64,000 nucleotides of DNA from positions 1,120,001 to 1,184,000 of the forward strand of contig OY771587.1 in the NCBI GenBank assembly GCA_963674825.1, given 5' to 3'. This document shows, piece after piece, positions 1-15,323 of this stretch. Both the position numbers and the translations under genes were made by a program. The notes beneath the pieces were generated by a model, which had not been told where the DNA came from, made no database searches, and worked only from the letters and a program-made list of their open reading frames with translations. The DNA comes from Candidatus Cloacimonadales bacterium (lineage in GTDB: Bacteria > Cloacimonadota > Cloacimonadia > Cloacimonadales > JAIOQZ01). The stretch's first letter is position 1. Every line of letters starts with the position of its first letter.

Positions 1-76
1 CACGTTCGAGATTGATGCTTTCCGCGCCGAGGCTTCCGATTAAAAGCGCAATACATATCGTCCAAAATCTTTTCAT
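1..76 (-). CDS. 5' end of a secreted protein running off the window (possibly TolC-family, given the upstream TetR)
   Basis: ATG at 76 overlaps the TetR stop. MKRFWTICIALLIGSLGAESINLER reads as a signal peptide. Confidence 0.55.
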   Translation of the reverse strand, partial: MKRFWTICIALLIGSLGAESINLER

Positions 77-696: not shown

Positions 697-733
697 GTTC
701 AACTCCTATCGCTATGTCATTTGACTCTTCAAT

Positions 734-780
734 TAAACCAATCACTTTAACCATATAGTCAAATTTAACCGGATGGTCAA
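734..780. promoter_or_regulatory. Tandem imperfect palindromes TTAACC-N4-(G/A)GTCAA, likely TetR autoregulatory operators over the promoter
   Basis: TTAACCATATAGTCAA 747-762, TTAACCGGATGGTCAA 765-780, weaker copy 734-749, all just upstream of tetR. Confidence 0.6.
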
Positions 781-866
781 TACTGGCAAGTTTTTTCTGA
801 TTGTCTCGTCCTGAAATTGTTGACCGTTTGGGCTAAGGAGGCACTATATTGGGGTTTCTTGAGCAG

Positions 867-895
867 AAAAAAAGCCTGCCCCGAGTCGTGCAGGC
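867..895 (-). terminator. Rho-independent terminator after the FG-GAP gene
   Basis: Minus strand reads GCCTGC...GCAGGC followed by a T run. Confidence 0.7.
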
Positions 896-1002
896 CGGTT
901 GACTTCCTTCGATTCTACTTCGCTCCCTTCCACACATACATCTCTTGTTGTCGTTGAGTTATATGAGTTTGTGAAAAGCCGAATTGCCTGGAGTTTGAGT
1001 GA

Positions 1003-3941
1003 TCAATTACAAGCCGGTTCACTTCCTATCCTGATGGGTAAAGGTTCGGGAAACGGGCTGCCTGCAGTCACTCTGTAAAACTTGGAACAAGAAGAAGTAC
1101 TCAAATCACTCCAGGATGTCGTGTTCAAATTCACGGCTTCCACTGCCCAACCATCAGGAAATTCGGCATTTGGATCGTTTGAACTATATACAGTATAAAT
1201 GACACCTCTGGAATTATACGGTACTGAATCCCAGGAGATCGTTACACTTGCATCGTTGCGGGTAATCGTTACATTCTGTGGCGGCATCAACGTAATAAAC
1301 TGCTGAATCGCAGACCAATCGGACTCAGCGAGTTCATTATCGACCGTTTTCACCCTGTAGTAATATCGATATCCTGCAAGGAGGTTGCTTTCAATCTGGA
1401 TATACGGCTGTCCAAATACAGTTATGACCGAATAAACAGGGGCGACAAACGTGTCGGTCGTATCCACCTCGACACAGTACTTCAAATGATCGGAATCATC
1501 GCTAAAATCCGGGTCGGAAGCATTACCCCAGGAAAGGATCGGCGTTAAGCTGTAAACAGCCTCGTCATTTGCCGGCGAAAAACCGCTTATAGGCGCATCA
1601 GGAGCCGTGTTGATCATGTTGAAGAAGAAATGAGCCGTGCCATCGGTAAAAACCGATGTCCAGCCATTTGAATAATTAGGTTTCATGCGCCAGTAATAAA
1701 CCGTATCGTCTGCAAGATTACCATAATCGGGCAATGTATTCAATCTCACCCCAGCGTAAAGTTCCGTAATCCGGGGATTGGGAGGAAGAACATTGTCATC
1801 TACTTCGGGACTGGAGAAATCGGGATTATCATCAATCTGTACCTGATAATCGGCTATAACGTCGAGGCTGTTGGCTTCCCAGAGCAGGGTTCCGGTGGGT
1901 CGCTGTTCATCAGCATTAATCAGACAAGGGTATAGAACCGGATTGGATACCTGCTCGGAGGCAAAGGGAGAACCGGCAAAACAATTATCAATAGCCTGCA
2001 CACTCCAATAATAAACCACAGAAGATGTCTGAAACGGATAGGTTACGTCAAATGTCCATTCGGTGTTATGGTTCTGACTGCCCAAACGGGGTACTTTCCG
2101 CCAGCCGTCGCTCTGCGCCATGGATGAGAATATCTCATCACCGCCGGATGTTGAACCGACCCGTAAGTTATAGGTCAATCCCGAGGATGGGGTTTCATCA
2201 TCCGTGGCGGCATTCCAACTGAAGGCAAGGGAGTTCTTTGTGAAGTTTGCCGTCAAACCGGTCGGAGAAGTGGGGACGGTATTGGCAATGGCAGCATTAT
2301 TTCTATAGATACTGGTAATATCATACCCTGCCAACAGAATATCCAAGTCGCCATCATTATCATAATCACCCCAGGCAACGGAACCATTTACGAGACCCGT
2401 CAAATTGATGCCGGTTTGTTCTGTAAAGGTGCCGTCTCCATTTTTTTTTAGATTTTGGTAGTGGGGCTGGAGCCGTATCCCGATAGAAGAATATCCAGGT
2501 CGCCATCGTTGTCGTAATCGCCCCAGGCGACACTACAATTCGTTACTCCAACCAGCCCGGCATTGATATCCGTAAAAGTATCATCGCCGTCATTGCGATA
2601 GACCTTGCTGATTGTGTGCCAAGAACCATCATAATATATTCCCGCCAACAGAATATCCAGATCGCCGTCGTTGTCATAATCACCCCAGGCGACGCTGCAA
2701 AAACCAACACCCTGCAGCCCTGCATCGATGTCCGTAAAAGTATCATTTCCATCATTGCGATAGATTCTGGAAATATATACTCCGTAGGGTAACCCGGTGG
2801 CAAGAAGGATATCCTGATCACCATCGTTGTCATAATCACCCCAGGCAACAGAACCATCGCAAATGCCAGGTAACCCGGCATTAATGGCGGTAAAAGTATC
2901 ATTGCCGTCATTGCGGTAGACTTCGCTGAGGTAGTTGCCGGCAACATTACTTCCCGCTAATAGAATATCCAGGTCGCCATCGTTGTCATAATCGCCCCAG
3001 GCGACGCTATTATACTCTACTCCAACCAGCCCAGCATTGATGTCTGTAAAAGTATCATTGCCGTCATTGCGATAGACTTCGCTGAGTCGGCCGCCGGGAA
3101 TACTCCCTCCCGTCAATAGAATATCCAGGTCGCCATCGTTGTCATAGTCTCCCCAGGCAACATCATTACCCGAAGAAACATCCACTAAATTGTCGGCAAT
3201 TTCGGTAAACAGATGCAAGGGGGCGCCGTCCGTCAAGACGGTACCATCCGTATCGCCATGAAGGTTATTGTCGGTGTAGTCCAGGATATCGTCTGCGCCG
3301 TCGCCGTTTATGCCCAAATCTTCCAGGACATCCAAGCGCCAATAGCCAATCAGACCATTCTCTGAACCGGTTAATGGATCCCAAATGGCAGATTGGATTT
3401 CCACCTGAGAGCGAGCATAATTCCAGATGCGTACTTCATCCATTTTACCGTTATGGGGAAAACTTCCATTACCTCTTAAGCCTAAACGGAAATCGCTGTC
3501 AGAGTGGACGATCGCTGTCGTCAATGGGTTTGAGCCATTATTTACTGCCCCCATATCGTTGCCGTTTATATATATCTGACCAAGGGATTGACTGGGATCA
3601 TATACACAAGCCACATGTACCCATGAGCCTGGAGTAAAGGCTTCGGCGGGGGTATCGATCCACACGCTGGTGGTGGGAATGAAGCGGATACCATTAGAGG
3701 TGCTGCCACCTAAATGGATTTCCAATTCTTCGCTGCTTTTTGCCGTCAGGAAATCTACATCGGTGCCGCTACCGTCCCAATAAAACCATAACTCGATGGT
3801 TACGGCAGCTACATCAAACAGGTCATCGTCGGGAATGCTGGCATAATCGGTTATCCCGTTAAATTCCAATGCGTTATTACCATACAAGTTGAGAGTAAAA
3901 AACATGAGGAAAATGAAAATGATGATCCCGGCTGTTTTCAT
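1003..3941 (-). pseudogene. Secreted LamG + FG-GAP repeat + FN3-like protein split by a 1-nt frameshift/stop near 2441-2450 (ORFs 2448-3941 and 1003-2403)
   Basis: Signal peptide, LamG ('WVHVACVYD', 'GKMDEVRIWNYARS') and six 'VAWGDYDNDGD' repeats across the two ORFs. The repeat unit continues across the junction (..KI*/xxNGDGTFTEQTGINLTGL..). Confidence 0.8.
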
Positions 3942-4063
3942 TTTTTTCTCCTTTGCATCGCACGCAGTTTATACATGATCTGATCAGATTTTATAAGGTA
4001 TATACCTTTTCTGTCAATATCATTCTATCTCACAAGTCCGTCGGTGCTTGGGCAGAAATCCAA

Positions 4064-4100
4064 GCGTCCGTAAAGCTCTGCCAAGGGGGCATTTAATAGG
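4064..4100 (+). repeat. Left copy of an imperfect direct repeat flanking the RiPP segment
   Basis: GCGTCCGTAAAGCTCTGCCAAGGGGG (4064-4089) matches 11152-11177 at 22 of 26 positions. Both are followed by CATTTwATAG. Confidence 0.6.
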
Positions 4101-4317
4101 CAACCAGGAATTGGGTCGCACAGAAGGAGACTAACTCTAAATATACGTGGTCGTGGATGCGAATGGTTATCCGGTCTGCATTCTTGTTACGTCAGGTGCC
4201 AGAATGAGCGGAAAGGAATCGCGACACGATACGCCGAGAACGTATCGTCGTACATTGCAGCGGTAAAGATTCGATGCCTCTTCTTCTGGCTCAATATCTC
4301 GTGACGACACTCTTTAG
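4099..4317 (+). mobile_element. Degraded, internally deleted IS5-family transposase remnant
   Basis: Fragments GNQELGRTEG / IYVVVDANGYPVCILVTSG and C-terminal GIATRYAENVSSYIAAVKIRCLFFWLNIS*. These match IS5-type motifs GRxKGG-K(I/L)H-VDxxG and R-IATRY-K. Confidence 0.75.
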
Positions 4318-4326
4318 AAGTCATTC

Positions 4327-6339
4327 CTATATTGCAAGAACTGCTCGTATCTTGAGATAAAGCGTTTTATGATCGAGTTCCCAAGTATCATCATATCGAT
4401 CTGCTCCTGAGTTATACCCAGCATAGACAGTGACCTGATTATATACTTGCCAGGAAGCGTTGAAATAGACCCCGTAGTGACCCTTATATCTGCCTATTGA
4501 GTAGTTGTGATATCTCAATCCTGATGTGAAAAACAATGTTGAGAATAAATAATACGTAACATCAGAATTTGCTACATCATAGCTTGGATCGATACTCTGT
4601 GTTTCATCCTCAGAGATATCGTAGTATTTCTTCCTTGTCCAGGATGCACTCAAGCTGAAATCGGACCATAAATGTATTGAAGAAGCAACGTTGATGCTTG
4701 CCCATGGCTTAACCTGAGCAAGCCTATAAACCAATTCCTTTCCGCTGGATCCAGTCATCGCTATACGATCATTCACCCGAAACGTGTAGTTTAAGTTATA
4801 GTAAGCTGTGTACTGGGAATACAGTTCGTCCAGATAGTCTTCCTGGCTATTCGTATAGAAAATGTTATGTGAATAATGCTGTGAGTGTTCAATGCCGAAC
4901 TTACCACCATAATTGCTCGTTCGCAGTGAATTGGTATTGTTATAGTATGTTGCATTCACCCAGACACTTGTACTGGTTGTTTCGATTATCCCCTTGCTTT
5001 CTTTCTCGTAGGATAATTCCGCGTCATATCCAGAGTAATTCGTTTCGTAGATTCGTCCCAGTGAACTTACAAAATCGCGACCAATATAATATCCATCAAG
5101 AGACAGAGAGAAATCTCCAGCCCGTTGATAATATGAAGCTTCGGAATACAGGTCGAGCAACACGTCATTATCATCGTGTTGATAGCGCGATAAATAGCCA
5201 TCGATCGTCAGCCATTTTGTCGGAGATATATACCAGGTAGGTTTAAACTGCAGCACTTCATTATCTTCATCGTCCTGCATATTTGCTATAATGCTCGAGT
5301 GTAAATTGACTGACTTATACTTCGAAAGAAATGATGCCAGAAATACTTTACCGACCGAGTCCTCAATATCGTCATCGTCCTGTGCAACCAATATTCCATA
5401 GTTGTATGATGCGGAGCTATTGATATATTTCAGGGCCGCTACGGGTTGTAGGATAGTACGGCTATAATATACGGATGTGTCGATATCGAAAATACTGAGA
5501 TCGCTTACAAAGAAGTAGCGGTTTTCTTCATAGTAGGGGTTATATTCGAGGTTGAAGATATCCTGCTCACTGTCAGGAGGGATGTCAGAATAATCGGGGT
5601 TAACAGTAGCATTCAATGTCATATTCGGCTTGGGATGAAAGCAGAAATCAATCCCAAAGCTATTTTCATCCAAATCATTTTCTTCGCGCATCAAATCATA
5701 TTTATCAACGGCATACGGAAGTACTTGCCAATTCATCTGAGACGGGAGTTTCTCATCAATCACAATGGAGGCACCACTTTTAAAATAGTCTTTTTCCATG
5801 CTGATTGGCGCATAAGGAAACGAATACGCTTCTTTCAGCGTCTGATAATATCTCGTGAGAATAATTTGCCATTGATAAGGTGGAGAACCGCTATAACGAA
5901 GGTCTTTACATGGTATTCTCATTGTGCAATTCCAGGTCGAATCGCTGATGGTCGATTCGTACGTGTACTGACTGTCCCATTCTGTCGAAGAGCTCAAATC
6001 GCTGTTTCGAATACCATCATAATAGGATCCCGCAGGAAAAGCATAGAAGAAGTATGCATAGTAGTCTGATGGAGACGTGATGATTTGAACACGTGCATAA
6101 TCGGATGCAGCCCAACGGTCATCAGCAGTAAATGTACCGGGGCAAAATGTGGAATCGATTTCCATCACCCATTGAAATACTAGCGTTGCATCTTCGTACC
6201 TGACAGAGCATTTTGTTGCTTGAAATGCAGGCACCTGATCATCAGGAGAAACACGCAGGAATTGCTCTGTGTTTGCAATGAGTGCCCAAGCTGTTGAGCC
6301 AATAAGCAAGAACAACATGATTATCAAAACAGATTTCAT
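4327..6339 (-). CDS. Secreted/outer-membrane protein, CBM9-like N-terminus + DUF5916-like region
   Basis: Signal peptide. 'WNCTMRIPCKDLRY' and 'ATVNPDYSDIPPDSEQDIFNL...EENRYFF' resemble DUF5916 proteins. The Tyr/Ser-rich C-terminal half is compatible with a beta-barrel. Confidence 0.7.
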   Translation of the reverse strand: MKSVLIIMLFLLIGSTAWALIANTEQFLRVSPDDQVPAFQATKCSVRYEDATLVFQWVMEIDSTFCPGTFTADDRWAASDYARVQIITSPSDYYAYFFYAFPAGSYYDGIRNSDLSSSTEWDSQYTYESTISDSTWNCTMRIPCKDLRYSGSPPYQWQIILTRYYQTLKEAYSFPYAPISMEKDYFKSGASIVIDEKLPSQMNWQVLPYAVDKYDLMREENDLDENSFGIDFCFHPKPNMTLNATVNPDYSDIPPDSEQDIFNLEYNPYYEENRYFFVSDLSIFDIDTSVYYSRTILQPVAALKYINSSASYNYGILVAQDDDDIEDSVGKVFLASFLSKYKSVNLHSSIIANMQDDEDNEVLQFKPTWYISPTKWLTIDGYLSRYQHDDNDVLLDLYSEASYYQRAGDFSLSLDGYYIGRDFVSSLGRIYETNYSGYDAELSYEKESKGIIETTSTSVWVNATYYNNTNSLRTSNYGGKFGIEHSQHYSHNIFYTNSQEDYLDELYSQYTAYYNLNYTFRVNDRIAMTGSSGKELVYRLAQVKPWASINVASSIHLWSDFSLSASWTRKKYYDISEDETQSIDPSYDVANSDVTYYLFSTLFFTSGLRYHNYSIGRYKGHYGVYFNASWQVYNQVTVYAGYNSGADRYDDTWELDHKTLYLKIRAVLAI

Positions 6340-6349
6340 ATTAACTCCG

Positions 6350-7141
6350 TCAAGAAGTTGCGCTTTTGTAGTATCTTAACATAAAGCGTGTCGCACTGTA
6401 GGCAAGCGTAAGAAAAATGGCGCAACACAGGCATGCTGTTAGCAAAACAGACCTTGTCATCCCCTGTTTCAACGCAAGTAAAGGGAAGTTGCCGATAATG
6501 AGAACCGGAATGATATAGGTGAACAACCATTTTATCGCAGGCTGGGCGAAGATAACTCCAGGGAATGTTGAAAGAGTGAAAAAGGAAGTAAAAAGCGAAG
6601 TAAACGCGTCAAATTTGATGAAGATGATCGCGCCAAGATACAAAATGATGTGAAATGAAGTGAAGATCAAGAGAGCAAGTAGCAGCACGAGCAGATAGGT
6701 TGTTATATGCAGAAAATCAACGTGTATCTGAAACTGCTGCACAATGATAATGAAAAGCACGATATCGATCAGGAGTCTGCCGAGAGCCTTGAATCCCATT
6801 ATACTGCAGAACATCTGGAAATGCAGGTGGAGTGGCTTGATCAATAAATGATCCAATGTTCCATACTGCACTCTTTGAGGTAACTGAGAAATGTTTGAGC
6901 TGAAAAAGAGACCGTAGAAATCGTTGACCGTCTTGACTGTCAACACCAATATATAAAGGTCAAACAATGGAATACCCAGGCTTGATTTTATCTGAAAATA
7001 GAGAATCCGATAAAATACAAGCCCCAGAACCAATCCTACAATATCGAGTACCTGATCAAGAATGAAGTCCTTCGAGAAAAACATCATCCTTTTCCATCCA
7101 AGGCGATTCACCTGTAAGTAATATACAAAATGCCGGATCAT
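6350..7141 (-). CDS. ABC-2 type transporter permease (DUF990-like)
   Basis: Multiple TM segments and 'VQYGTLDHLLIKP'. True start is likely ATG 7141, overlapping the upstream stop (ATGA). Confidence 0.85.
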   Translation of the reverse strand: MIRHFVYYLQVNRLGWKRMMFFSKDFILDQVLDIVGLVLGLVFYRILYFQIKSSLGIPLFDLYILVLTVKTVNDFYGLFFSSNISQLPQRVQYGTLDHLLIKPLHLHFQMFCSIMGFKALGRLLIDIVLFIIIVQQFQIHVDFLHITTYLLVLLLALLIFTSFHIILYLGAIIFIKFDAFTSLFTSFFTLSTFPGVIFAQPAIKWLFTYIIPVLIIGNFPLLALKQGMTRSVLLTACLCCAIFLTLAYSATRFMLRYYKSATS

Positions 7142-7932
7142 CCTGTAGCCTCGTATTTCATTATTCCTTTTCTCCACGTGGTCGTAAGTGCAATCCACAC
7201 CACCAGTACCCAGAGCACTGCTTGTGATAGTAAAATGAGAAAATCTGGCCACGGCATGCTTCTGGTTAGAATACGGGCAGGATAGTAAACCAGATACGCT
7301 GGCGGCAAGCTTAGTAAAATAGTTCGGCAAACACCCGGAAAGATATCCAGCGGGAGAATGCTGCCCGTCATGAATGGCAAAAGTATGCTCAGCAGATTTT
7401 CAACAAACCGAATCTCAAGAAAAAAGAAAGCCAGAATCGACAGCCAGAAGATCAGAAGAAATGAGAGGATTGCCGCAACTACGCTCAATACAAGAAACTG
7501 AATCAAGCTTATGAAATCGATTGGAACCAAGAAGCTACCACGCACAACTACGTATGTTGCGTAGGTGATGATAATCGCAACGGATATAGATATGCTCTTT
7601 AGCGTATAATATACAGTGAAATTATGCCAGAAGTAACGATACGGCTTCAGTAAATGATTATTCAAGCCTCCATTTTTGATATCGTTTTTAATATCCCACC
7701 AGGTTGTGATCGAGAATGCCTCGCTCGTCACTCTTGCCAACAGAAAATAAGCAAGCAGTGATGAGAGCTCCCAAGAGCCAAGAGAAGAGCCATTCTGGTA
7801 AACAAAACGAACTAGCAGTAACTGTCCTAACAAGGGAATCAGGACAACGAGGAAGCTCAAGATGAAGTTTGTCCGATACGCCATGCCCTCTTTCAGGGTT
7901 TGTCTGGCCAGTCCATAGTAGTAGTTATTCAT
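7138..7932 (-). CDS. ABC-2 type transporter permease (DUF990-like)
   Basis: TM-rich, with 'DIKNGGLNNHLLKP', 'GSILPLDIFP' and a C-terminal 'YEATG'. Confidence 0.85.
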   Translation of the reverse strand: MNNYYYGLARQTLKEGMAYRTNFILSFLVVLIPLLGQLLLVRFVYQNGSSLGSWELSSLLAYFLLARVTSEAFSITTWWDIKNDIKNGGLNNHLLKPYRYFWHNFTVYYTLKSISISVAIIITYATYVVVRGSFLVPIDFISLIQFLVLSVVAAILSFLLIFWLSILAFFFLEIRFVENLLSILLPFMTGSILPLDIFPGVCRTILLSLPPAYLVYYPARILTRSMPWPDFLILLSQAVLWVLVVWIALTTTWRKGIMKYEATG

Positions 7933-8878
7933 GACTCAAAATCTCGACAATGATATCTTCATTATCCTTTTTCTCGACCTTGAAATCGACAATGGCATGT
8001 TTGCCGACAATATCACAAATCGTAGGACTTGATGCATCTCCATCGAAATCCAGAACAACCATATTACCCGCAACGCGACCGTTATAGTCGGAAGCAATTT
8101 TCTGAGCTGTCATATGGGAGTCTGTGTGCAGAACAACCTTTTCATGGCTGTGTTTCTCGAGCAGATAGGCTGTGTCTCCTTGATAAAGAATCTTTCCCTT
8201 GTGCATGACAAGGCATGTATCGCAGCAATCCAGAATGTCCTTAACATTGTGGCTGCAGATAATAAAGCAGATTCCAAATTCCTCATGGCAGAAGTTTATA
8301 AACTTACGCAGGGAATCACGCGAAATTACATCAAGACCAGAGGTCGGTTCATCTAAGAACACTATCCGAGGCAGATGTATAAAGCTGTAGAGCAATTCCA
8401 TCTTTGTTCGTTGCCCAAGTGACATATTTCTCAGTGGTTGATGGATTTCATTAGTGATGTTCAGCGCTTCGCTGAAAATCCCGAGACGACGAACGAACTC
8501 TTCTTTACTGTATCCGTAAATGTGTCGTGACAGCTCGATGCTGTCGATCGCAGGAATATCCCAGATCAGTTGTCCTCTACCTCCCTGAAACAGGCCAATA
8601 TTCATTTTAAAATCTGTGACCAATTTCTGAGGAATAGAATCGAGAACCCGGATTGATCCCGCTGATGGATGCAGTATCCCGGTCAGCATCTTGATCAGCG
8701 TGGTCTTTCCTGCACCATTCTTGCCAAAAACACCAAGGTTTTTCTCAGCATTATGCGTAAAAGATATATCCGAGACAGCCTCAATCAATTTATATGTTGG
8801 CTTCCAGAATGATGATGATGTTTTTACTTTATAGACCTTGCTTAGAGCCTTTACTTCGATTGCGCTTGAACTTTCCAT
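7925..8878 (-). CDS. ABC transporter ATP-binding protein
   Basis: Walker A GKNGAGKT, signature MSLGQR, Walker B VFLDEPT, H-loop CSHN. Confidence 0.93.
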   Translation of the reverse strand: MESSSAIEVKALSKVYKVKTSSSFWKPTYKLIEAVSDISFTHNAEKNLGVFGKNGAGKTTLIKMLTGILHPSAGSIRVLDSIPQKLVTDFKMNIGLFQGGRGQLIWDIPAIDSIELSRHIYGYSKEEFVRRLGIFSEALNITNEIHQPLRNMSLGQRTKMELLYSFIHLPRIVFLDEPTSGLDVISRDSLRKFINFCHEEFGICFIICSHNVKDILDCCDTCLVMHKGKILYQGDTAYLLEKHSHEKVVLHTDSHMTAQKIASDYNGRVAGNMVVLDFDGDASSPTICDIVGKHAIVDFKVEKKDNEDIIVEILSHE

Positions 8879-10113
8879 TTCATTACCTGGGGTAGAGCTT
8901 TTTCCAGCATTGGATGCATGCAGCCATTTTCAGCTTCTCCATTATGTTTCCCAAGCAAGCATCCGCCGTAGCATATGGGAAGATAACTGCATCTTTTGCA
9001 TGCTCCAGATATGTGTTTGTATAAATCATGCTTGATTTTCTGTGAAATTGCCTCATAACCATCTTCCAGATTGCCAACCGAAAACTTTTTGTCTCCAGTC
9101 ATGCTTATACATTTATAAATATCTCCGAAGCTGTCAACGACAAATTCATATCGCTTTTTATTTGAACACAGGTGAGTTTTAATAAAGTCTTCGTATTTTG
9201 TATCCTTCCCCTCAACAGGGATGTTGTTTCTTTGTACAAAGTCCATTTTTACTCTGGAGAATTCAGGATATGTAATAACCGTTGCGAGTTTATTTGTTTC
9301 ACCTGAACATATCTTCGCTACATAGAAATCATTGGGAGAGTATTTCATTATCACATGCTTATATACATAATCAAGACAGTGAACATTTCCGCTGTCGACA
9401 TTTACAGATATGTGTCGCGTAATGTCGTTTTCCACAAGAGAATCAAGGGATCTCATGATATTGTCATACGCCGACTCACCATTCTTCATCGGCCTCCGCT
9501 TATTATGCGTTTCCTTATCCCCATCTACCGTGATCAACACTTTTGCCATATTAACAGCCTTAAGGGCATTTAGCACTTCATCTTGATGAATTCGCACACC
9601 ATTTGACACCATCGTCGTCATTATCGTGGAAAAATGTTTCACAGCAATATTGTAAACATCGATCATTATCTGAGGAAACAAAGTCGGTTCGCCGCCATGG
9701 AACGAGAGGTGAATCACATCGATGCCGCTCTTTTCTCTGCATTGTTGCAGAAAAGCATCCAGGTTATCGAGCTGAGCGAATGATGTATAGCCTTGATACA
9801 TGCCGTGTTCATAACAGTAATAGCAATTGCAGTTACACATGTTCGTCACATGAATCGTCAGTGATATCTTATCCTCATTGCATAAGTGATCCTCAAATCG
9901 CTGGAGAGCTTCTTCAGATTCAGAATAATCATCATCAACAAAATCTTCGCACTCAACAAGCATTCGCATCTCATCATCGTCGAATCCCTTGCCTGTTTTC
10001 CATGAATCCTTGTCGATCGGCCTGTCGATTACAAGTAGAGACTTGTTCAGAGTATTAAAGATAATGGTGTTTTCACCTTCGTTGTATATTTTCGCAAAGT
10101 ATGATAATCTCAT
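8851..10113 (-). CDS. Radical SAM/SPASM domain peptide maturase (420 aa)
   Basis: CxxxCxxC (CNCNCYYC), FHGGEP, VDG. Seven-Cys SPASM motif C-x13-G-x4-C...CxxC-x5-C-x3-C...C. AGGAGG RBS before ATG 10113. Confidence 0.93.
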   Translation of the reverse strand: MRLSYFAKIYNEGENTIIFNTLNKSLLVIDRPIDKDSWKTGKGFDDDEMRMLVECEDFVDDDYSESEEALQRFEDHLCNEDKISLTIHVTNMCNCNCYYCYEHGMYQGYTSFAQLDNLDAFLQQCREKSGIDVIHLSFHGGEPTLFPQIMIDVYNIAVKHFSTIMTTMVSNGVRIHQDEVLNALKAVNMAKVLITVDGDKETHNKRRPMKNGESAYDNIMRSLDSLVENDITRHISVNVDSGNVHCLDYVYKHVIMKYSPNDFYVAKICSGETNKLATVITYPEFSRVKMDFVQRNNIPVEGKDTKYEDFIKTHLCSNKKRYEFVVDSFGDIYKCISMTGDKKFSVGNLEDGYEAISQKIKHDLYKHISGACKRCSYLPICYGGCLLGKHNGEAENGCMHPMLEKALPQVMKWKVQAQSK

Positions 10114-10164
10114 TTTTCCTCCTAACATTACATGAGCATGCGCACTTAAGGTCAAAGATGAACC

Positions 10165-10290
10165 CTAATACAGTGGCGGATCAGGATTTGGAATGGGTTT
10201 GGGATCCGGACAGCGCTGAGTCCTCTGGTTACATGATTCCAATGGAGTTTCATCAAATGCATTTTGCGGTTTCAAGATCATGGTAATCAT
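10165..10290 (-). CDS. Putative RiPP precursor peptide A2, 41 aa: MITMILKPQNAFDETPLESCNQRTQRCPDPKPIPNPDPPLY (not in ORF track)
   Basis: Translated by hand. AGGAGG RBS, paralogous to A1, immediately upstream of the rSAM gene. Confidence 0.88.
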   Translation of the reverse strand: MITMILKPQNAFDETPLESCNQRTQRCPDPKPIPNPDPPLY

Positions 10291-10349
10291 TATTCCTCCT
10301 TTTGTCCTGCAATCTAACTGAGATGCAGGGCTTGCGTTAGTTAGTCACA

Positions 10350-10478
10350 CTAGATTTTGGGCAGTTCTGGATCTGGATCTGGTACTGGCGGTGGGGGGCA
10401 CCGGTGGGTGCGCTGGTTGCAAGAATCCAGTGGTGTCTCGTCAAATGCGTTCTGTGGTTTCAAGATCATAGTAATCAT
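10350..10478 (-). CDS. Putative RiPP precursor peptide A1, 42 aa: MITMILKPQNAFDETPLDSCNQRTHRCPPPPVPDPDPELPKI
   Basis: TAGGAGG RBS before ATG 10478. 26 of the first 28 residues are identical to A2 despite many synonymous codon differences. Confidence 0.88.
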   Translation of the reverse strand: MITMILKPQNAFDETPLDSCNQRTHRCPPPPVPDPDPELPKI

Positions 10479-10511
10479 TGTTCCTCCTAAAGAATTACAA
10501 GTGCGCATGCT

Positions 10512-10545
10512 TCTTGAATATTTATATTTCAAAATTGAATGTCAA
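10512..10545 (-). promoter_or_regulatory. Candidate sigma70 promoter of the RiPP operon
   Basis: Perfect TTGACA (10545-10540) followed by an AT-rich region. The -10 element is not a clean consensus. Confidence 0.45.
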
Positions 10546-11151
10546 ACCTTTTTTAAGTATTGATCTTAATTAGCGGATGGTAATATTTTGGGGTGCAGGC
10601 AATTGCCATTATGTATTATTTATTATTAATGCTCAAATTCGTCTTGGTTTTGCTACACACCTGCCCTAATTCGGATTCAGCATAAGGATTCATGACAGAA
10701 ATGGCCGAGGAAAATGGGACTTGCTTTTATACCCCATGCTGAGCCTTCTTCGACCCACTAGCCAACTAAAGAGCCCCAAAAATCTACTGCCTTTTCAGAA
10801 TTATGATTTTCAGCGTCAATATCTGCTCCAATTGATGGTAGCGCACTGAAACTTCCATATATATAGATATGAATCCCCATTATCAATAACAAGATATATT
10901 AGTCCGTTTACAGCATTCGCATATCTTATCTCACCTTCGAAGCTATTTGGATCAGTAATGGCTTTCTCTACAGGCTCAATCGCGGCATTCTTCGGCAGTC
11001 TACCGAACATCCCGCAACCCTTCGAGGTTTTCTTGCAAAGCTCTAGAATTCCCTTTTCGCTGGTGTTCTGGCTTTCACCCTTCGGTTCGAATCGTATCGA
11101 AATGACGGCAGAAAGTAGCTTGATGAATGCTCGTCCCGTCCTGAAAAAGGG

Positions 11152-11190
11152 GCATCTGTAAACTTCTGCCAAGGGGGTGTCATTTTATAG
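11152..11190 (+). repeat. Right copy of the imperfect direct repeat flanking the RiPP segment
   Basis: GCATCTGTAAACTTCTGCCAAGGGGG, 22/26 identical to 4064-4089. Confidence 0.6.
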
Positions 11191-11436
11191 CGATTTCCTC
11201 GATTCAAGCGGATATATTTTCCATGTAAACTATGCGGATAAATTCTAAGATTCAGTCACTTGCGTAAGTAGGGCCAACTAAAGAAGGAGATATACTCACG
11301 AAAAGCATTCGGCATTACTCGTAATTTCCAGGTAGCTTATTATAATAATAGTGTTCGCTCATTTTTAATAATTTCTTGACATACTATTTACACAATACCA
11401 TACATAGCATTCAATCACACTTCGAGGGGAAACATT

Positions 11437-13413
11437 ATGAGAGATTATTATGATGCGCTTGATGAAATCATGGACTATGCAGTAGACGCCGATAGAGAGC
11501 CATCAGCAAACAGCAAACTCAAGATTAACGCAAAAGATTTCTACGATGGATTGTACGTTAGAAGGCGAAATGAAGAAGCTAAGATAATTGACCTACTGAA
11601 AGAAGCCCATATGATCCATGTTATCGGTGAGCGTGGAAGTGGAAAATCATCTCTCTTAAACGCATTGCCGCGATTATATCAGACAAGGAAAAGTCCTCAT
11701 GGCAATCTTCTATTTTTGCTTTTTGATTTTTTCAGCAACAGAAAACACCAGGAAGCAGTTCACAAATCATTAACCGGCGGAATAGAATTACTAGAAAATG
11801 AAATTAAAGCAGACTTTACCGAAAAATATAAAAAATTATCCCTGCGGATAGTCAAACACTATGGGAATTTGCTACAGAAACCAGAGCCCGAAAATCATAT
11901 GCCAAGTTCAGCTTTTACTGAAAGATACACAGACAGGTATGACCTATTATCCAACGAAGAGAATAAGGCGCTAAAACATTTAGATTTACTGGATATAGGC
12001 CAGTATTGCCATAAAAAACACAATCAGAAAATAATTATTATTCTAGACAATTTTGACTCATGTTATCTCGATCGGATTTTCAACTATGAAGCCATTACCA
12101 GCTTCATGGAAATCCTACACAAACGCTTGCCCACATATAAAGGGCTAATCAGGTTCATTGTTGCGATCCGACATGATATATACCACGAATCTTTTACCAA
12201 GCCAGCACGTCTTAACCAACCAGGTCATGGAACAATGATAAAAAACAGACTCTTTTCCCTTGACTATACCGACTTATTAACGTATCTGGATGTAAAAAAA
12301 GAGATTGAAAAAAGTATAGCCACTGCTATCAGTATTGGTCATACCGAATGGGAGTCCCTTCAAGAAACTTTTCAGGATATGGCCCTACAAAAGTTCGAGA
12401 GATCCATTGCTTGGAATAGAAAAAACTACCTTGAGAAATACGCTAACCAATTGTGCAATAGAGATCCTAAATATGATCGCATTATTAACATGGCAGAAGA
12501 AAGCTACGCAATAACAGCTACATTGAATGGTTATTTTAACTATGATAGAAGAAAATCAAGCAAAGCCAGAAGACAATTTTGTTCTTACACAAGAATCAAT
12601 TACAAGCAAAGACTATACATTTTATCAAGACAAGAGATTGAGACGATTTTCTTCAGATGGTTTATCACAAACCATGCTATTGGTTACGATACAAGCACCT
12701 GTGATATTGTTGGCGAACTCACAACTGAATCTAATGGTCGAATATTATGCAATCTTGGCTTCATGCTTTCAGTATATCTTAATAACCATAGAAAACTCGG
12801 GAACACGCTAACCGGTATTAATGCATCAAAAATCATTCGAGTGTTCAGAAAGTTTGGCTATCCTGCCCAAGACGTGATTAATACACTAGTGTTTTTTCAC
12901 GATCACGCATATATCAATACAAGTAAGAACTATAGGGCTAAAGGCCGAACTGGAAAAGAAGACTACCTCATCCATCCGCAACCCAAATTACTGATCAATA
13001 TAGTAGGCCTTATACAGAAGTACACATATATGATTACACGCATAGCTCAAGAAAACAACTTCTCCGTGACCATTGATGATATAATGAGCAAAACAAATAT
13101 TGAACGGGTAATTTCTTTCGTAAGTAAAATGAGCATTGAGCACATTTCCGCATTGAAATCGATGATCAACAACAAGAAATCCGGATCTTCCATGAAAACA
13201 TACCTTGAAGAATTCTCATACAGAAATTCACTGAATGAAGCCGCCTTTTCAAATCAAAGTATTGAATGGAAAATAGGAAATTTACTGTTGCCAAGACTAA
13301 TCAGGGATCACATATCATATCTTGAGACTAATGATATCAGTGAAACCTATATCAAAAAGTACAAGGAAATCAATCGTAATTTCAAAAAGGAGGTAATCGA
13401 GATTTATGGATGA
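11437..13413 (+). CDS. P-loop NTPase, 658 aa, AT-rich
   Basis: Walker A GERGSGKS and Walker B IIIILDNFD. Long uncharacterised C-terminal region. Confidence 0.8.
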   Translation: MRDYYDALDEIMDYAVDADREPSANSKLKINAKDFYDGLYVRRRNEEAKIIDLLKEAHMIHVIGERGSGKSSLLNALPRLYQTRKSPHGNLLFLLFDFFSNRKHQEAVHKSLTGGIELLENEIKADFTEKYKKLSLRIVKHYGNLLQKPEPENHMPSSAFTERYTDRYDLLSNEENKALKHLDLLDIGQYCHKKHNQKIIIILDNFDSCYLDRIFNYEAITSFMEILHKRLPTYKGLIRFIVAIRHDIYHESFTKPARLNQPGHGTMIKNRLFSLDYTDLLTYLDVKKEIEKSIATAISIGHTEWESLQETFQDMALQKFERSIAWNRKNYLEKYANQLCNRDPKYDRIINMAEESYAITATLNGYFNYDRRKSSKARRQFCSYTRINYKQRLYILSRQEIETIFFRWFITNHAIGYDTSTCDIVGELTTESNGRILCNLGFMLSVYLNNHRKLGNTLTGINASKIIRVFRKFGYPAQDVINTLVFFHDHAYINTSKNYRAKGRTGKEDYLIHPQPKLLINIVGLIQKYTYMITRIAQENNFSVTIDDIMSKTNIERVISFVSKMSIEHISALKSMINNKKSGSSMKTYLEEFSYRNSLNEAAFSNQSIEWKIGNLLLPRLIRDHISYLETNDISETYIKKYKEINRNFKKEVIEIYG

Positions 13414-13585
13414 AATTATAGATAAAATTGAGGAGCTTAGGCAAGAGGTTCTTGAGCTTTTAGACTATACCATTAAAAGTAGCAGACGCAATGAGATCAT
13501 CCAGTACATCCTCATTGCCCTTACACTAGTATCAACGGCAAACGCTATTGTCTCAATTTTAATTTTTCTTCAGCACAAACCATAA
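13406..13585 (+). CDS. Small protein, 59 aa, acidic coiled-coil N-terminus + C-terminal TM helix (not in ORF track)
   Basis: MDEIIDKIEELRQEVLELLDYTIKSSRRNEIIQYILIALTLVSTANAIVSILIFLQHKP. AAGGAGGT RBS and an 8-nt overlap with the NTPase gene. Confidence 0.7.
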   Translation: MDEIIDKIEELRQEVLELLDYTIKSSRRNEIIQYILIALTLVSTANAIVSILIFLQHKP

Positions 13586-13676
13586 AGCAAAGTAACAGTA
13601 TGTTCTTTGCTGTTTTCGCATCACTCAGCATCAGAATGTTTGATATTTACTATATATGCATTCAGAAATAAGCTTG

Positions 13677-14546
13677 CTACATCATATTGAGGATAGAGAT
13701 GAATTCACCGGCGTTCTCGATTTCTTCTTTGGCGATGTTGCGATAGGAATCGAGATTGTATTTATTATCCTTGTCCGGCAGGATACCAAGGCGTTCCAGG
13801 GCAACAGGAGATAGTTCATCGGCGGTGTGGCTGACGGATGGCGATGAATATCCGAGACAATTGACGATGCTGTTGGAGAAGTGGATCATCGCGGTCTCGA
13901 TGGAGGGATCTTTTTCCGGTTCGTGGTGGAACCCCACGGCGTTCTCGATATCCATGGGCAGTTTCCAGCTCTGACAGAGCCAGCTTCCAATCTGCGTGTG
14001 ATCCACACCGATTACCACCATCTCCGCCATTTGCGATGTCTCCCCCATGTCGCGTGTACGCTTCTCTATCTCCAGATATCGCGGATGCAGGTACTCGTGG
14101 ATAATGAGCTTACCAATGTCATGCAAAATCCCGATAGTGAAGATTTCCGACGGTGCGCCAATCTTCAACTCCTCGCTGAGCCGCTTCCCCACGATCGCCA
14201 CTGCCAGACAGTGTTCCCAATAGCGCATCCTGTCGAAATCGTCGTCCCGATACTCCGTATTAAAGCGCTTGGTGAGCGTAAGGCTGATAGCCAGGTTGGT
14301 GATGGTATTGAAGCCGAGAAGCGAGATCGCGAGTTGAACCGTCTTGATCTGGTTTGTAAAAGCGTAGTAGGAAGAATTGGCCAGCTTGAGAATTCGCGCG
14401 GTAAGTGCTTGATCGGATGATATCAGCTTAGCGAGACCTGAGGCGGATGTACTGGGATTGTCGATCATCTCGAGTAGCTTCGCGACAATCGTCGGCATTG
14501 CGGGAAGGCTGATGATGTGTCTGGTAATCTCTTTTACATCGACCAT
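13677..14546 (-). CDS. HDOD domain protein
   Basis: 'LPAMPTIV', 'DQALTARILKLANSSYY', 'GILHDIGK', 'DHTQIGSWLCQSWKLP...HHEP'. Confidence 0.92.
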   Translation of the reverse strand: MVDVKEITRHIISLPAMPTIVAKLLEMIDNPSTSASGLAKLISSDQALTARILKLANSSYYAFTNQIKTVQLAISLLGFNTITNLAISLTLTKRFNTEYRDDDFDRMRYWEHCLAVAIVGKRLSEELKIGAPSEIFTIGILHDIGKLIIHEYLHPRYLEIEKRTRDMGETSQMAEMVVIGVDHTQIGSWLCQSWKLPMDIENAVGFHHEPEKDPSIETAMIHFSNSIVNCLGYSSPSVSHTADELSPVALERLGILPDKDNKYNLDSYRNIAKEEIENAGEFISILNMM

Positions 14547-14549
14547 AGT

Positions 14550-15323
14550 CTAATAGAGGTCTTTGAGTTTCACGTTCTGCAGAATGCTGCGAAGCTTCAT
14601 CAGGGCAGAGGAATGCATCTGAGATATTCGCGACTCGGTAACATCCAGTACCAATCCAATCTCTTTCAGTGTCAATTCTTCGTAGTAATAGAGCGCAACC
14701 ACCAGCTTTTCCTTATCCGGAAGCTGACTGATGGCGTCGGATATCCGTTTGCGCAGGTTCTGCTCGAGGTACTTTTCTTCCGCACTGCTCTCGGATTTAT
14801 CTTCGATAACATCTGAGATGTGCATGCTATTGCCTTCACCATCGCTGGGAACAACAGCGTCCAGCGATCCGAGGAAAAGCGGGCCAAGATTATCGGTAAT
14901 CTGGTAATACTCCTCGATGGTCATATCCAGTTCCTGGGCAATCTCATCGTCAGTTGGCATGCGCCCCAGTTCGTTGAAGAGCGCGTGAATCGCGCTATCG
15001 ATGCGCTTGGACTTCTGCCTGACGGATCTCGGTACCCAGTCGGTGCGTCTTATCTCGTCGATGATCGCACCGCGAACACGGATGGTGGCAAACGTCTGGA
15101 ACTCGAAACCGCGTTCGGGATCGAATTTCTGCATTGCTTCGAGCAGACCGATCACGCCAGCGCTGTAAAGATCCTCTTTTTCAAGCGTTCTGGAAGAGAA
15201 AATACTCAGCTTGTTGGCAAGGTAATGGACGATGTGGAGGTATTTCTCCACAATCTTTTCCATGAGCTCATGACGGCCCGTCTTGCGGTATAACTGCCAT
15301 AGTTTCTTTTCTTCCGCGTCCAT
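14550..15323 (-). CDS. fliA: RNA polymerase sigma-28 factor, FliA/WhiG family
   Basis: 'RVRGAIIDEIRRTDWVPRSVR' and 'LYYYEELTLKEIGLVLDVTESRISQMH'. Confidence 0.92.
   Translation of the reverse strand: MDAEEKKLWQLYRKTGRHELMEKIVEKYLHIVHYLANKLSIFSSRTLEKEDLYSAGVIGLLEAMQKFDPERGFEFQTFATIRVRGAIIDEIRRTDWVPRSVRQKSKRIDSAIHALFNELGRMPTDDEIAQELDMTIEEYYQITDNLGPLFLGSLDAVVPSDGEGNSMHISDVIEDKSESSAEEKYLEQNLRKRISDAISQLPDKEKLVVALYYYEELTLKEIGLVLDVTESRISQMHSSALMKLRSILQNVKLKDLY

Follow-up and report, generated by a model that had tools for sequence, protein, structure and literature searches.

Putative precursor peptides with a variable proline-rich tail, paired in one genome, precede a radical SAM/SPASM maturase in a few Cloacimonadales

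Two short paralogous genes, A1 and A2, head a six-gene operon in the window (the whole 64,000-nucleotide stretch of Candidatus Cloacimonadales DNA analysed here), whose further genes encode a radical SAM (rSAM)/SPASM maturase, the ATPase and two permeases of an ABC-2 transporter, and a secreted DUF5916-like protein; all lie on the minus strand. A1 (10350..10478) encodes a putative precursor peptide of 42 amino acids, MITMILKPQNAFDETPLDSCNQRTHRCPPPPVPDPDPELPKI, with a leader at about residues 1-17, a C20-x6-C27-P28 motif and a Pro-rich tail at residues 29-42. A2 (10165..10290) encodes a paralogous putative precursor of 41 amino acids, MITMILKPQNAFDETPLESCNQRTQRCPDPKPIPNPDPPLY; its exact sequence is found in the public protein collection, from which the 42-amino acid form of A1 is absent. 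The maturase (8851..10113, 420 aa) has a predicted N-terminal peptide-binding domain and matches the Pfam families PF04055 (E 3.6e-17, which passes the gathering threshold) and PF13353. The ABC ATPase gene (7925..8878, 317 aa, PF00005) overlaps the end of the rSAM gene by 28 nt, matches a DrrA-like subfamily below its cut-off, and is kept in the Cloacimonadota genomes G045, G111 and G066. Permease 1 (7138..7932, 264 aa) and permease 2 (6350..7141) both match PF06182 (E 8.4e-20 and 8.8e-26, respectively), the latter over residues 100-324 of a long ORF. As listed, this ORF begins at TTG 7330; the sequence itself and the sizes of the orthologues (257 and 263 aa) suggest instead a start at ATG 7141, overlapping the preceding stop.

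The last cassette gene (4327..6339) encodes a secreted, mostly beta-strand protein of 670 aa. Its positional counterpart in G045 is 29% identical (E 2e-98), and that in G111 has 715 aa. None of the three matches a Pfam family at E ≤ 10, PF19313 and PF06452 included. The DUF5916/CBM9 likeness comes only from language-model look-alikes in the Atlas (0.97-0.98), 27/30 of which are in clusters with DUF5916 and CBM9_1 and 3/30 in DUF5916-only clusters, and it is a lead, not a membership. AF2, run on the 670-aa protein with a 3-row alignment, gave an unusable model (mean pLDDT 39.5). The cassette contains no protease gene. No tRNA genes were found in positions 1-15000, and thus no tRNA-linked island boundary; an Rfam search of 3900-11500 yielded nothing credible, the only match being to a snoRNA that scored 27 bits where the gathering threshold is 80.

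A sequence-only reading of this DNA had placed both peptide ORFs correctly and counted 26 shared residues among their first 28, which is exact, the two changes being D18E and H25Q. All eight synonymous codon pairs that it named are present, and the ribosome-binding sites that it reported were confirmed: AGGAGG-N4-ATG precedes A1, A2 and the rSAM gene alike. Its claim of selection at the protein level is borne out by the substitution counts. Codons differ at 17 of the 28 positions, and the Nei-Gojobori method gives 15.0 synonymous differences over 17.0 synonymous sites against 3.0 non-synonymous differences over 67.0 non-synonymous sites. Of the 24 positions where the residue is identical and its codons are degenerate, nine use the same codon, with 8.8 ± 2.2 expected from independent draws at local usage. 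Thus, synonymous sites are fully randomised while the protein has been kept, which marks A1 and A2 as real genes subject to strong purifying selection on the protein. DNA 5' of the two ribosome-binding sites does not align. When the 3.89-Mb genome was searched with A1, A2 was recovered at E = 2.2e-17, so the likeness is not due to chance, and A1 and A2 are the only credible copies. Rather than a single 28-residue leader, this shared stretch is better regarded as some 17 residues of leader followed by a conserved C-x6-C-P core motif.

Upstream of A1, a consensus scan found a candidate sigma-70-type promoter (TTGACA - 17 nt - AATATT, 10517..10545, minus strand), which is a consensus match only, as the scanned region has five such sites and shuffled sequence would be expected to give 4.9. 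There are no intrinsic terminator-like sites in 9900-11500 (1.4 expected). The two peptide genes are bracketed by an inverted repeat on the minus strand. Its upstream arm (10499..10522) may supply the 5'-UTR side of a long-range RNA stem around A1 and A2, and its downstream arm (10124..10147) directly precedes the ribosome-binding site of the rSAM gene. The arms are 24 nt long, 351 nt apart and 79% complementary, with a 12/12 core. Their duplex is predicted at -34.8 kcal/mol, versus -19.8 ± 3.4 in shuffles, of which 1/500 was as good, and the stem occurs in both the MFE and centroid folds. RNAalifold on five loci recovered the long-range stem with 21 pairs, five of them changed on both sides, although with an unfavourable covariation term (+4.12) because the arms of loci L018 and G045 were misaligned; the case for the stem therefore relies on the per-locus shuffle tests.

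In every close locus the precursor gene or genes are bracketed by an inverted repeat, and the sequence of the arms is lineage-specific, a recurrence that points to a long-range RNA stem.

Matches to the rSAM enzyme at E ≤ 1e-40 are present in 5 of 232 Cloacimonadota genomes. The gene is full length in three of these (this genome, G045 and G111), and all three have such a peptide directly upstream; the other two retain only the C-terminal part, the gene being truncated with a TGA in G066 and running past the contig end in G079. The peptide is also found in 4/4 close metagenome loci, among 80 metagenome loci kept. In the two other genomes and the four metagenome contigs it is single-copy and precedes the rSAM orthologue; conservation in related loci, on which the earlier reading had staked its proposal, is thus seen directly upstream of an rSAM/SPASM orthologue. 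In all three genomes the peptide is followed by the rSAM gene, the ABC ATPase, two PF06182 permeases and the protein of 670-715 aa, in this order, and the genes flanking the cassette are unrelated among them.

The orthologous peptides have a common pattern of a hydrophobic N-terminal strand, then C-x6-C-P with R-T-[QH]-R inside it, then a variable tail, in agreement with the earlier description of a conserved N-terminus and Cys motif followed by a variable end. Eleven positions are invariant in a seven-sequence alignment (M1, I2, I5, E14, C20, R23, T24, R26, C27, P28 and P31), in which the distinct sequences number only about seven and come from at most 3-4 independent lineages. Each peptide has two Cys, except that of G045, which has a third in its tail. 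The enzyme orthologues are 38-45% identical, and the peptide Cys, Arg and Pro residues are invariant though the DNA of these lineages is otherwise unalignable. A1 searched against 5.8 billion proteins matched A2 alone, and a seven-peptide profile searched against 1.84 billion representatives gave three matches (39, 41 and 43 aa). However, small ORFs are under-called, and rarity in databases is therefore weak evidence for true rarity. A scan of genome contigs with the rSAM pair returned one of 98 candidate stretches, in the Cloacimonadales MAG already known. No NCBIfam or Pfam peptide model matched A1, A2 or the peptides of L018, L021 and L022 (E ≤ 0.01 to 1). As far as sampled, the family appears confined to a few Cloacimonadales.

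The tails extend 11-15 residues past C-P. The P-x-P-x-P-D-P pattern proposed for them is present in both A1 (PVPDPDP) and A2 (PIPNPDP), but in this genome only, as orthologue tails differ (PPPVDPPP, PPPPVNPP) and that of G045 has few Pro (2 of 11 residues); overall, 6/7 orthologues have a Pro-rich tail. Between A1 and A2, 7/12 aligned tail residues are common and 5/12 differ (with one gap), compared with 2/28 differences in the N-terminal part. Within the A1 tail, Tandem Repeats Finder and a codon read-out identify a perfect hexanucleotide repeat of 2.8 copies (10366..10382, minus strand) encoding Pro-Asp-Pro-Asp-Pro-Glu.

The next-best full-length match to the rSAM enzyme after the close family is a sister family from metagenomes (loci L019, L021 and L022), about 24% identical (E 1e-33 to 1e-37), annotated as "hypothetical protein", uncharacterised and unnamed. 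Its three peptides end in CCNGGQRCPSA, CCNGGQRCPQD and CCTRSQRCPNE. In common with the A1/A2 family, they have the C-x6-C-P spacing, the Q-R-C-P motif end and a hydrophobic leader strand, and the loci encode the rSAM/SPASM enzyme, an ABC ATPase and ABC-2 permeases. Particular to the sister family are a Cys-Cys doublet (C-C-x3-Q-R-C-P-x-x), a longer leader and the lack of a Pro-rich tail; a GNAT-like gene is present in 2/3 loci, and a DUF5916-like gene was not seen in the available flanking DNA. The bracketing stem is non-significant in 2/3 of these loci. With 24% enzyme identity and a motif of only 5-8 residues to go on, a shared origin of the sister peptides with A1/A2 is plausible. The sister peptides stop two residues past QRCP, which makes the tail of the A1/A2 family most likely a clade-specific, fast-evolving add-on and agrees with the earlier suggestion of a variable extension. 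A further peptide, from L023, ending in CGCGCSSQRVSP and lying by a 26%-identical rSAM, was dropped as possibly coincidental: it is without the second Cys and has another gene set (B12-rSAM, nucleotidyltransferase-like, ABC-F).

In the enzyme, the C93-x3-C97-x2-C100 (CX3CX2C) motif is invariant across five rSAM orthologues, as are seven C-terminal Cys: C316, C335 (in G330-x4-C335), C372-x2-C375-x5-C381-x3-C385 and C398. These residues fit the SPASM pattern for two auxiliary clusters, G-x4-C ... C-x2-C-x5-C-x3-C ... C. The SPASM HMM TIGR04085 is not among the 25 families listed for this rSAM, and is listed for the sister enzymes. The best NCBIfam matches are to peptide maturases, all below curated cut-offs: the geopeptide maturase TIGR04280 (137.1 bits, cut-off 400, best stretch residues 1-228 only), CefB NF038107 (119.1 bits, cut-off 600), Clo7bot TIGR04334 and the C-rich-peptide maturase TIGR04463 (111 and 99 bits, both far below cut-offs of 400-600), the PapB family NF047865 (93.7 bits, cut-off 340, over residues 84-386) and the SCIFF maturase TIGR03974 (68.4 bits, cut-off 425). 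Also matched are DynA (87.7 bits), YhhB (65.9 bits), FxsB and DarE, which are cyclophane- or ether-forming maturases, and QhpD-type maturases. The nearest solved relative is CteB (5wgg, E 1.3e-18). Since the enzyme falls far below every curated cut-off, its chemistry is not transferable by homology. By analogy with these relatives, it probably forms Cys thioethers on A1 and A2.

The N-terminus of the enzyme has no Pfam PqqD/RRE match at E ≤ 0.01. However, the maturase-family alignments cover residues 1-80, and those of the geopeptide, CefB, Clo7bot and TIGR04463 families begin at residue 1-11 and so include the predicted N-terminal peptide-binding domain. A model of the enzyme-peptide complex scored 0.69 (runs 0.68-0.71; best control 0.00), a mark reached by 116/157 solved complexes and 2/215 mismatched pairs, although the input here, shallow alignments of 5 and 7 rows plus ligands, was unlike that of the calibration. 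Contact agreement between runs is at least 67%, with a partner pLDDT of at least 55. The confident interface consists of peptide residues 1-12 and 14-26 only: residues 2-9 lie on the N-terminal domain, paired with enzyme residues 23-29 (expected error 0.7-1.5 A), and residues 14-26 at the catalytic cleft. The tail has no confident placement, and its absence from the interface does not amount to evidence of no contact. Leader-RRE complexes of related enzymes are already solved, so the model's pass may reflect that likeness and not the A1/A2-rSAM pair. A1 and A2 are most likely substrates of the adjoining enzyme.

From these comparisons, the cassette is read as a real and new small RiPP family, so far undescribed, in a few uncultured Cloacimonadales. 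The favoured account, to which we give a probability of about 60%, is that A1 and A2 are tandem precursors of a small, uncurated rSAM/SPASM-modified family in which the tail is a fast-evolving core extension dispensable for recognition. Both genes would be transcribed ahead of the maturase, within a proposed stem that pairs the 5' UTR with the spacer between A2 and the rSAM gene, and each peptide would be translated from its AGGAGG-N4-ATG. In the model, strand residues 2-9 (I-T-M-I-L-K-P-Q) add as a beta-strand to residues 23-29 of the putative recognition domain, which would bring C20-x-x-R-T-[QH]-R-C27-P28 into the cleft that separates the SAM barrel from the SPASM domain. The 5'-deoxyadenosyl radical would there most likely form one or two intramolecular Cys thioether cross-links, a step modelled on the nearest characterised relatives, CteB, PapB and QhpD-type enzymes. 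The conserved gene order suggests export by the co-operonic ABC-2 transporter, with the DUF5916-like secreted protein acting at or beyond the outer membrane. As the cassette encodes no protease, the leader may be removed elsewhere or never. The Pro-rich tail would be a lineage-specific C-terminal extension of the core, and since the tails differ between paralogues, one enzyme would give two products that share the modified head but not the tail.

Most of the competing accounts turn on the tail or on the chemistry. One, rather unlikely in our judgement, places the tail within the ring, with Asp or Asn past Cys27 as acceptor of a Cys thioether, as in Cys-Asp and Cys-Asn ranthipeptides, and the Pro-rich stretch as a macrocycle spacer. 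All seven peptides have [VIT]-(P)-[DN] 5-8 residues past Cys27 (V-P-D, I-P-N, V-D, V-N, T-N), PapB-family and QhpD-type maturases are among the enzyme matches, and 2/3 sister peptides have Asp or Glu at +3 from the last Cys (C-P-Q-D, C-P-N-E), one also Asn at +2. However, the pattern was noticed post hoc in seven related sequences, the spacing from Cys27 varies between 6 and 8 residues, the C-P-S-A ending of the third sister peptide offers no acidic or amide side chain, confident model contacts end at residue 26, and the PapB-type C-x3-D/E motif is absent from A1, A2 and five orthologues. The sequence-only reading had also entertained a follower or recognition element, needed by the rSAM or RRE to bind or orient the substrate and removed later. 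This now appears highly improbable: P31 is invariant and most orthologue tails are Pro-rich, but the sister family is tail-less, the G045 tail is Pro-poor with an extra Cys, and the modelled interface is the N-terminal strand, in the canonical RRE mode. The tail also changes fastest, the opposite of what is expected for an element recognised by a conserved enzyme.

Also rather unlikely is that the peptides are rSAM substrates on which the enzyme makes no thioether. The R/T/Q residues of the motif would then be epimerised, cross-linked through C-C or C-O bonds or altered by some other radical reaction, and the two Cys would serve as a disulfide, metal ligand or Cys-Pro heme-type ligand in the mature product. 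In keeping with this, the enzyme lies under all curated thioether-family cut-offs and matches DynA, YhhB, FxsB and DarE, and R26 and [QH]25 are conserved as strongly as the Cys residues. Against this, the top relatives (geopeptide, CefB, Clo7bot, TIGR04463, PapB) and CteB act on Cys-rich peptides, and the lack of a conserved aromatic residue in the core argues against cyclophane chemistry. That A1 and A2 are not precursors at all, being cis-regulatory upstream ORFs (leader peptides) that tune the rSAM operon or spurious ORFs, is barely credible. Their very short length, 5' position in the operon and location inside a conserved RNA structure would fit, yet synonymous change is saturated with 26/28 residues kept, a strong ribosome-binding site precedes each ORF, Cys, Arg and Pro are invariant across lineages, and the modelled enzyme fit passes its controls; nor is it normal for regulatory leader peptides to keep C-x6-C-P across enzymes only 38-45% identical.

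Among known systems, CteB forms a Cys-Thr thioether on SCIFF. The CteB/SCIFF system (PDB 5wgg, 5why) resembles this one in the arrangement of N-terminal peptide-binding domain (here predicted), radical SAM barrel and SPASM domain with conserved Cys, in the leader binding as an added beta-strand (here modelled), and in a short Cys-containing precursor encoded directly upstream. It differs in that A1 and A2 have two Cys and not six, a Pro-rich tail and a tandem arrangement, and belong to an accessory cassette of patchy occurrence that includes an ABC-2 exporter. PapB/freyrasin-type ranthipeptides are similar in having a partly similar rSAM/SPASM enzyme and acidic or amide residues near Cys, but they have a C-x3-D repeat where the A1/A2 family has a single C-x6-C-P motif. 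The TIGR04280, NF038107, TIGR04334 and TIGR04463 maturases are the best-scoring curated families, yet A1 and A2 match no peptide model. PapB ranthipeptides carry Cys-Asp or Cys-Glu non-alpha thioethers according to PMC9413430 and PMC10739248. Literature searches found no paper combining "QRCP" with "radical SAM", none mentioning "geopeptide", and none on a RiPP from Cloacimonadota; "Cloacimon" with "ranthipeptide", and ranthipeptide with proline-rich, gave only unrelated work. Neither "Cloacimon" nor "QRCP" occurs in the PMC10288494 supplement.

Cloacimonadota are uncultured, abundant syntrophs in anaerobic digesters. A more ambitious reading, which we consider improbable, is a new RiPP class with a C-x6-C-P ring and a hypervariable, rigid polyproline-type tail that sets the target, with repeat-driven diversification and stem-processed precursor mRNA. 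If this were true, the tandem genes and the slippage-prone (Pro-Asp)n hexanucleotide repeat would diversify the tail, and the precursor cistrons would be excised from the operon mRNA and stabilised by the stem, like rRNA-style processing, so that the stem would set precursor-to-enzyme stoichiometry post-transcriptionally. On the favoured account of a small rSAM/SPASM-modified family, current ideas are not overturned; one family and two testable features are added. Should the stem be real, it would offer a simple, portable means of uncoupling the level of precursor mRNA from that of enzyme mRNA. The cassette may serve as a compact test case, with six genes, no protease and an enzyme outside every curated family, and with two Cys in a fixed C-x6-C-P frame its chemistry should be easily solved by co-expression and MS. 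Together, the A1/A2 pair and the tail-less sister family would constitute a natural experiment on the C-terminal extension in an rSAM RiPP.

In this Cloacimonadales bacterium, two small ORFs, A1 (10478..10350, 42 aa) and A2 (10290..10165, 41 aa), are the first genes of a tightly packed minus-strand operon and are separated by 59 nt. The sequence-only reading gave both peptides exactly, and its observation of near-identical first 28 residues beneath synonymous codon divergence is confirmed: the sole differences are D18E and H25Q, and 17 of the 28 codons differ in DNA. Its proposal of selection at the protein level is borne out by a dN/dS-type (Nei-Gojobori) comparison of the pair over these codons (15.0 synonymous differences on 17.0 sites, 3.0 non-synonymous on 67.0). 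The same codon is used at 9 of 24 same-residue degenerate positions, against 8.8 +- 2.2 expected for independent draws from local codon usage. Randomisation is thus complete at synonymous sites but the protein is kept, a pattern that excludes recent gene conversion or duplication and demonstrates purifying selection on the peptide. Both genes have AGGAGG, as claimed earlier, here as AGGAGG-N4-ATG, and so does the radical SAM/SPASM maturase (rSAM) gene that follows A2; DNA 5' of the ribosome-binding sites of A1 and A2 does not align. A1 and A2 are the sole copies in their genome (3.89 Mb, one contig), where the runner-up matches (E 0.2-0.4) are interrupted by stops. Of the two, only A2 has an exact entry in the public protein collection; A1 in its 42-aa form has none. 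The spacer between the two genes (10291-10349) forms a local hairpin, CCTGCA...TGCAGG, in both the MFE and centroid folds, with no U-run after it.

The rSAM gene (10113..8851, minus strand, Radical_SAM domain) encodes C93-x3-C97-x2-C100 and seven conserved C-terminal cysteines in the SPASM pattern; the cluster-binding motifs are intact. It is overlapped by an ABC ATPase gene (8878..7925) and followed by two PF06182 ABC-2 permease genes (7932..7138 and about 7141..6350), all on the minus strand; this export module is conserved. The best curated-family matches of the enzyme are without exception peptide maturases, each far under its cut-off in bits (geopeptide 137/400, CefB 119/600, Clo7bot 111/600, FlmE/OhkG 105/500, TIGR04463 99/525, PapB 94/340, SCIFF 68/425), and the closest solved structure is CteB (5wgg, E 1.3e-18), with anSME next. 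The precursors also differ from those of known systems, lacking the C-x3-D pattern of PapB, the six-Cys pattern of SCIFF and the Cys-every-fifth pattern of CefB. The cassette is a RiPP system of known rSAM/SPASM kind, outside every curated family. No description of it was found in the literature searched, in which PMC10288494, PMC9413430, PMC10739248 and PMC10177961 came up.

The sixth and last cassette gene (6339..4327, minus strand) encodes a secreted protein of 670 aa, rich in strands and with long beta-hairpins in the C-terminal half, which matches no Pfam family at E <= 10. Its identity to the positional equivalent in G045, a 'Candidatus Cloacimonadales' MAG, is 29% (E 2e-98); counterparts lie at 3848-5950 of locus L009 and 8772-10919 of locus L095 (size range including the window, 670-715 aa). 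Its language-model look-alikes are DUF5916/CBM9 clusters (scores 0.97-0.98), a likeness treated as no more than a lead, the AF2 model (pLDDT 39.5) being too poor for use.

With the enzyme as single query, 4 of 61 relatives' genomes match at E <= 1e-20, the own genome counted, and among the other three only G045 is close (39% identity). A two-row rSAM profile finds 5 of 232 Cloacimonadota genomes at E <= 1e-40, again including the own genome, and none of three same-genus or seven same-family genomes. A search of 5.8 billion proteins gave 6 clusters at E <= 1e-30, and four close loci (L015-L018, 42-44% identity to rSAM) are found among the 80 metagenome loci listed. Each locus with a full-length rSAM gene bears, directly upstream, one small ORF that aligns with A1 and A2, so the peptides are conserved in related loci: MILIIKKPTSPSEEPIKESCDRRTQRCPEPPPVDPPPNQ in L015 and in G111, another Cloacimonadota genome; ...KETCDRRTQRCPPPPPPVDPPP, then IS/NS, in L016 and L017; MIIIIKKPSSANEEPIKERCDSRTQRCPPPPPVNPPIGPPIVK in L018; and MILVIKSVVEPNSEDTKEECNQRTQRCPEPPKTNCQNNN in G045. 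Two peptide genes are found only in the window's genome. M1, I2, I5, E14, C20, R23, T24, R26, C27, P28 and P31 are invariant across the seven aligned sequences. All six genes keep their order in G045 and G111, where the neighbouring genes are unrelated: one genome has OTCase and MatE there, the other an SDR, a nitroreductase and alanine racemase. The peptide genes are thus real, selected, conserved and coupled to the rSAM/SPASM gene. A further Cloacimonadota genome, G066, has a decayed cassette (L013, 1495-1959), in which just the C-terminal 154-167 rSAM residues are left, with one TGA in the match; this locus has no peptide gene, and the downstream ABC ATPase is intact. Genome G079 has the same sequence until its contig end, breaking off at the same point.

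GC content is 37-43% at window positions 4001-14000 vs 44-50% on either side, and the segment at about 4.1-13.7 kb has no counterpart in three same-genus genomes, short repeats aside, although both its flanks match them at 70-91%. By its low GC and missing counterpart, this segment of about 9.6 kb is accessory; the cassette shares it with a plus-strand nSTAND/KAP-type P-loop NTPase gene (11437-13413). No tRNA was found at the edge of this island (about 4100-13700). Parts of 45-105 nt from short stretches at 799-943, 4024-4099 and 10655-10701 occur again, at several places and with 79-88% identity, among the three same-genus genomes; these stretches are not tRNA and match no Rfam family, and the own genome holds one more copy of 4024-4099 and none of 10655-10701. 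Two large secreted proteins encoded at 1003-3941 (minus strand) have repeated ...VAWGDYDNDGDLDILL... units, which we take to be FG-GAP/VCBS-like, and the DNA there is 85-91% identical to a same-genus genome.

The tail after C27-P28 is 11-15 residues long in the seven peptides, with a Pro share of 46-67% in six and 18% in G045. It is the fastest-changing part of the peptide: between A1 and A2, 5 of 12 aligned tail residues differ vs 2 of 28 before the tail. The Pro-Asp-Pro-Asp-Pro-Glu run of the A1 tail is specified by 2.8 perfect copies of a hexanucleotide (10366-10382), and mutational slippage there may underlie part of the variability, possibly including tail length. After the close loci, the best full-length rSAM matches among the 80 metagenome loci listed belong to a distant sister family (L019-L022, 24% identity, E 1e-33 to 1e-37). 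In the three of four loci examined in full, the peptide genes (L019, 1894-2097; L021, 1906-2079; L022, 172-297), labelled hypothetical in the source records, adjoin rSAM/SPASM genes and the same ABC-2 transporter type as the cassette, with a GNAT-like gene (257-261 aa) between peptide and enzyme in L019 and L021; none of the sister peptides or enzymes attains a curated family. These peptides (jointly ...SCCNGGQRCPSA, ...KCCNGGQRCPQD and ...GGCCTRSQRCPNE) end C-C-x3-Q-R-C-P-x-x, keeping the C-x6-C-P frame and Q-R-C-P and terminating two residues past C-P. As the tail-less peptides keep C-x6-C-P, we read this motif as the ancestral core; the Pro-rich tail would be an extension gained in the Cloacimonadales clade. 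Of the earlier proposal that the tail is a variable core extension or a follower/recognition element, the unusual variable extension stands and the recognition role finds no support. The tail could alternatively be part of the ring, with [VIT]-(P)-[DN] as a PapB- or NxxC-like acceptor; this pattern is present in all seven tails, 5-8 residues past C27, but was spotted after the fact.

The enzyme-peptide complex was modelled from an rSAM alignment (A3), a peptide alignment (A4), three 4Fe-4S clusters and SAM. Three controls all scored 0.00 and three runs 0.69, 0.68 and 0.71, the runs' level being attained by 116 of 157 solved complexes vs 2 of 215 mismatched pairs in a calibration unlike this case, in which our own shallow alignments and ligands were used. 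Contact agreement was at least 67% and partner pLDDT at least 55. Because solved leader complexes exist for related enzymes, likeness to them may account for the pass. In the model, peptide residues 2-9 make the tightest contacts, with enzyme residues 23-29, as strand addition onto the N-terminal domain, and peptide residues 14-26 lie against enzyme residues 101, 238, 264-271, 309-323, 336-337, 385-388 and 414-418, which surround the SAM-cluster motif and SPASM cysteines; residues 27-42 fall outside the confident interface, which does not argue against contact there. The leader strand would thus dock on the enzyme and bring the Cys motif into the cleft of the active site. Since the nearest relatives of the enzyme act on Cys-rich peptides, one or two Cys thioether cross-links would be expected within or beside C-x6-C-P, and the thioether label of the sequence-only reading is likewise inference. 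The product would be exported via the ABC-2 system, with a putative outer-envelope role for the DUF5916-like protein. As the cassette has no protease gene, the leader would be cleaved by a protease encoded elsewhere.

A1 and A2 are enclosed by 24-nt inverted-repeat arms (10499-10522/10124-10147; 79% complementary, 12/12 in the core), of which the downstream arm stops just 5' of the rSAM ribosome-binding site. All close loci have such a repeat around their precursor gene or genes. Like geometry with other arm sequences is seen at four further loci: G111 (L012, 1255-1278/1462-1485; 24 nt, 83% complementary), G045 (L006, 2760-2774/2935-2949; 15 nt, 93%), L018 (2759-2781/2959-2982; 14 nt at 86% and 10 nt at 100%) and L017 (127-136/348-357; 10/10). 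Duplex energies between the 100 nt preceding the initial peptide ATG and the spacer that separates peptide and rSAM genes were compared with dinucleotide shuffles: -34.8 vs -19.8 +- 3.4 in the window (1/500 shuffles as good), and, with 0/500 each, -37.5 vs -17.2 +- 3.2 in G111, -21.8 vs -11.0 +- 2.7 in G045 and -34.2 vs -15.0 +- 3.0 in L018. Five of the seven loci tested have 0-1 of 500 shuffles as good, two of these five being identical; L016 (1/500) and L017 (8/500) are separate. As G111 and L015-L018 have a common arm sequence, the independent versions number about three. The close loci have z of about -4 to -6, except L017 (about -2.5), and 40 random window places of the same geometry gave -2.9 to +1.8. 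In the sister family, the duplex test is negative for a stem in both L019 and L022, with an ambiguous result for L021. The stem appears in the MFE and centroid folds of 10530..10100, where the region-wide z-score is just -0.86. RNAalifold also finds it, but misalignment of two sequences makes the covariation term unfavourable. The repeats are less readily explained as a MITE or an operator pair, because the geometry is constant while arm sequences vary by lineage. We read them as a candidate long-range RNA stem that surrounds the precursor cistron(s) and may serve for processing by RNase III or for stabilisation.

New rSAM RiPP families turn up often. The present peptide family is tiny, uncharacterised and from an uncultured phylum, and clean experiments on it are feasible.
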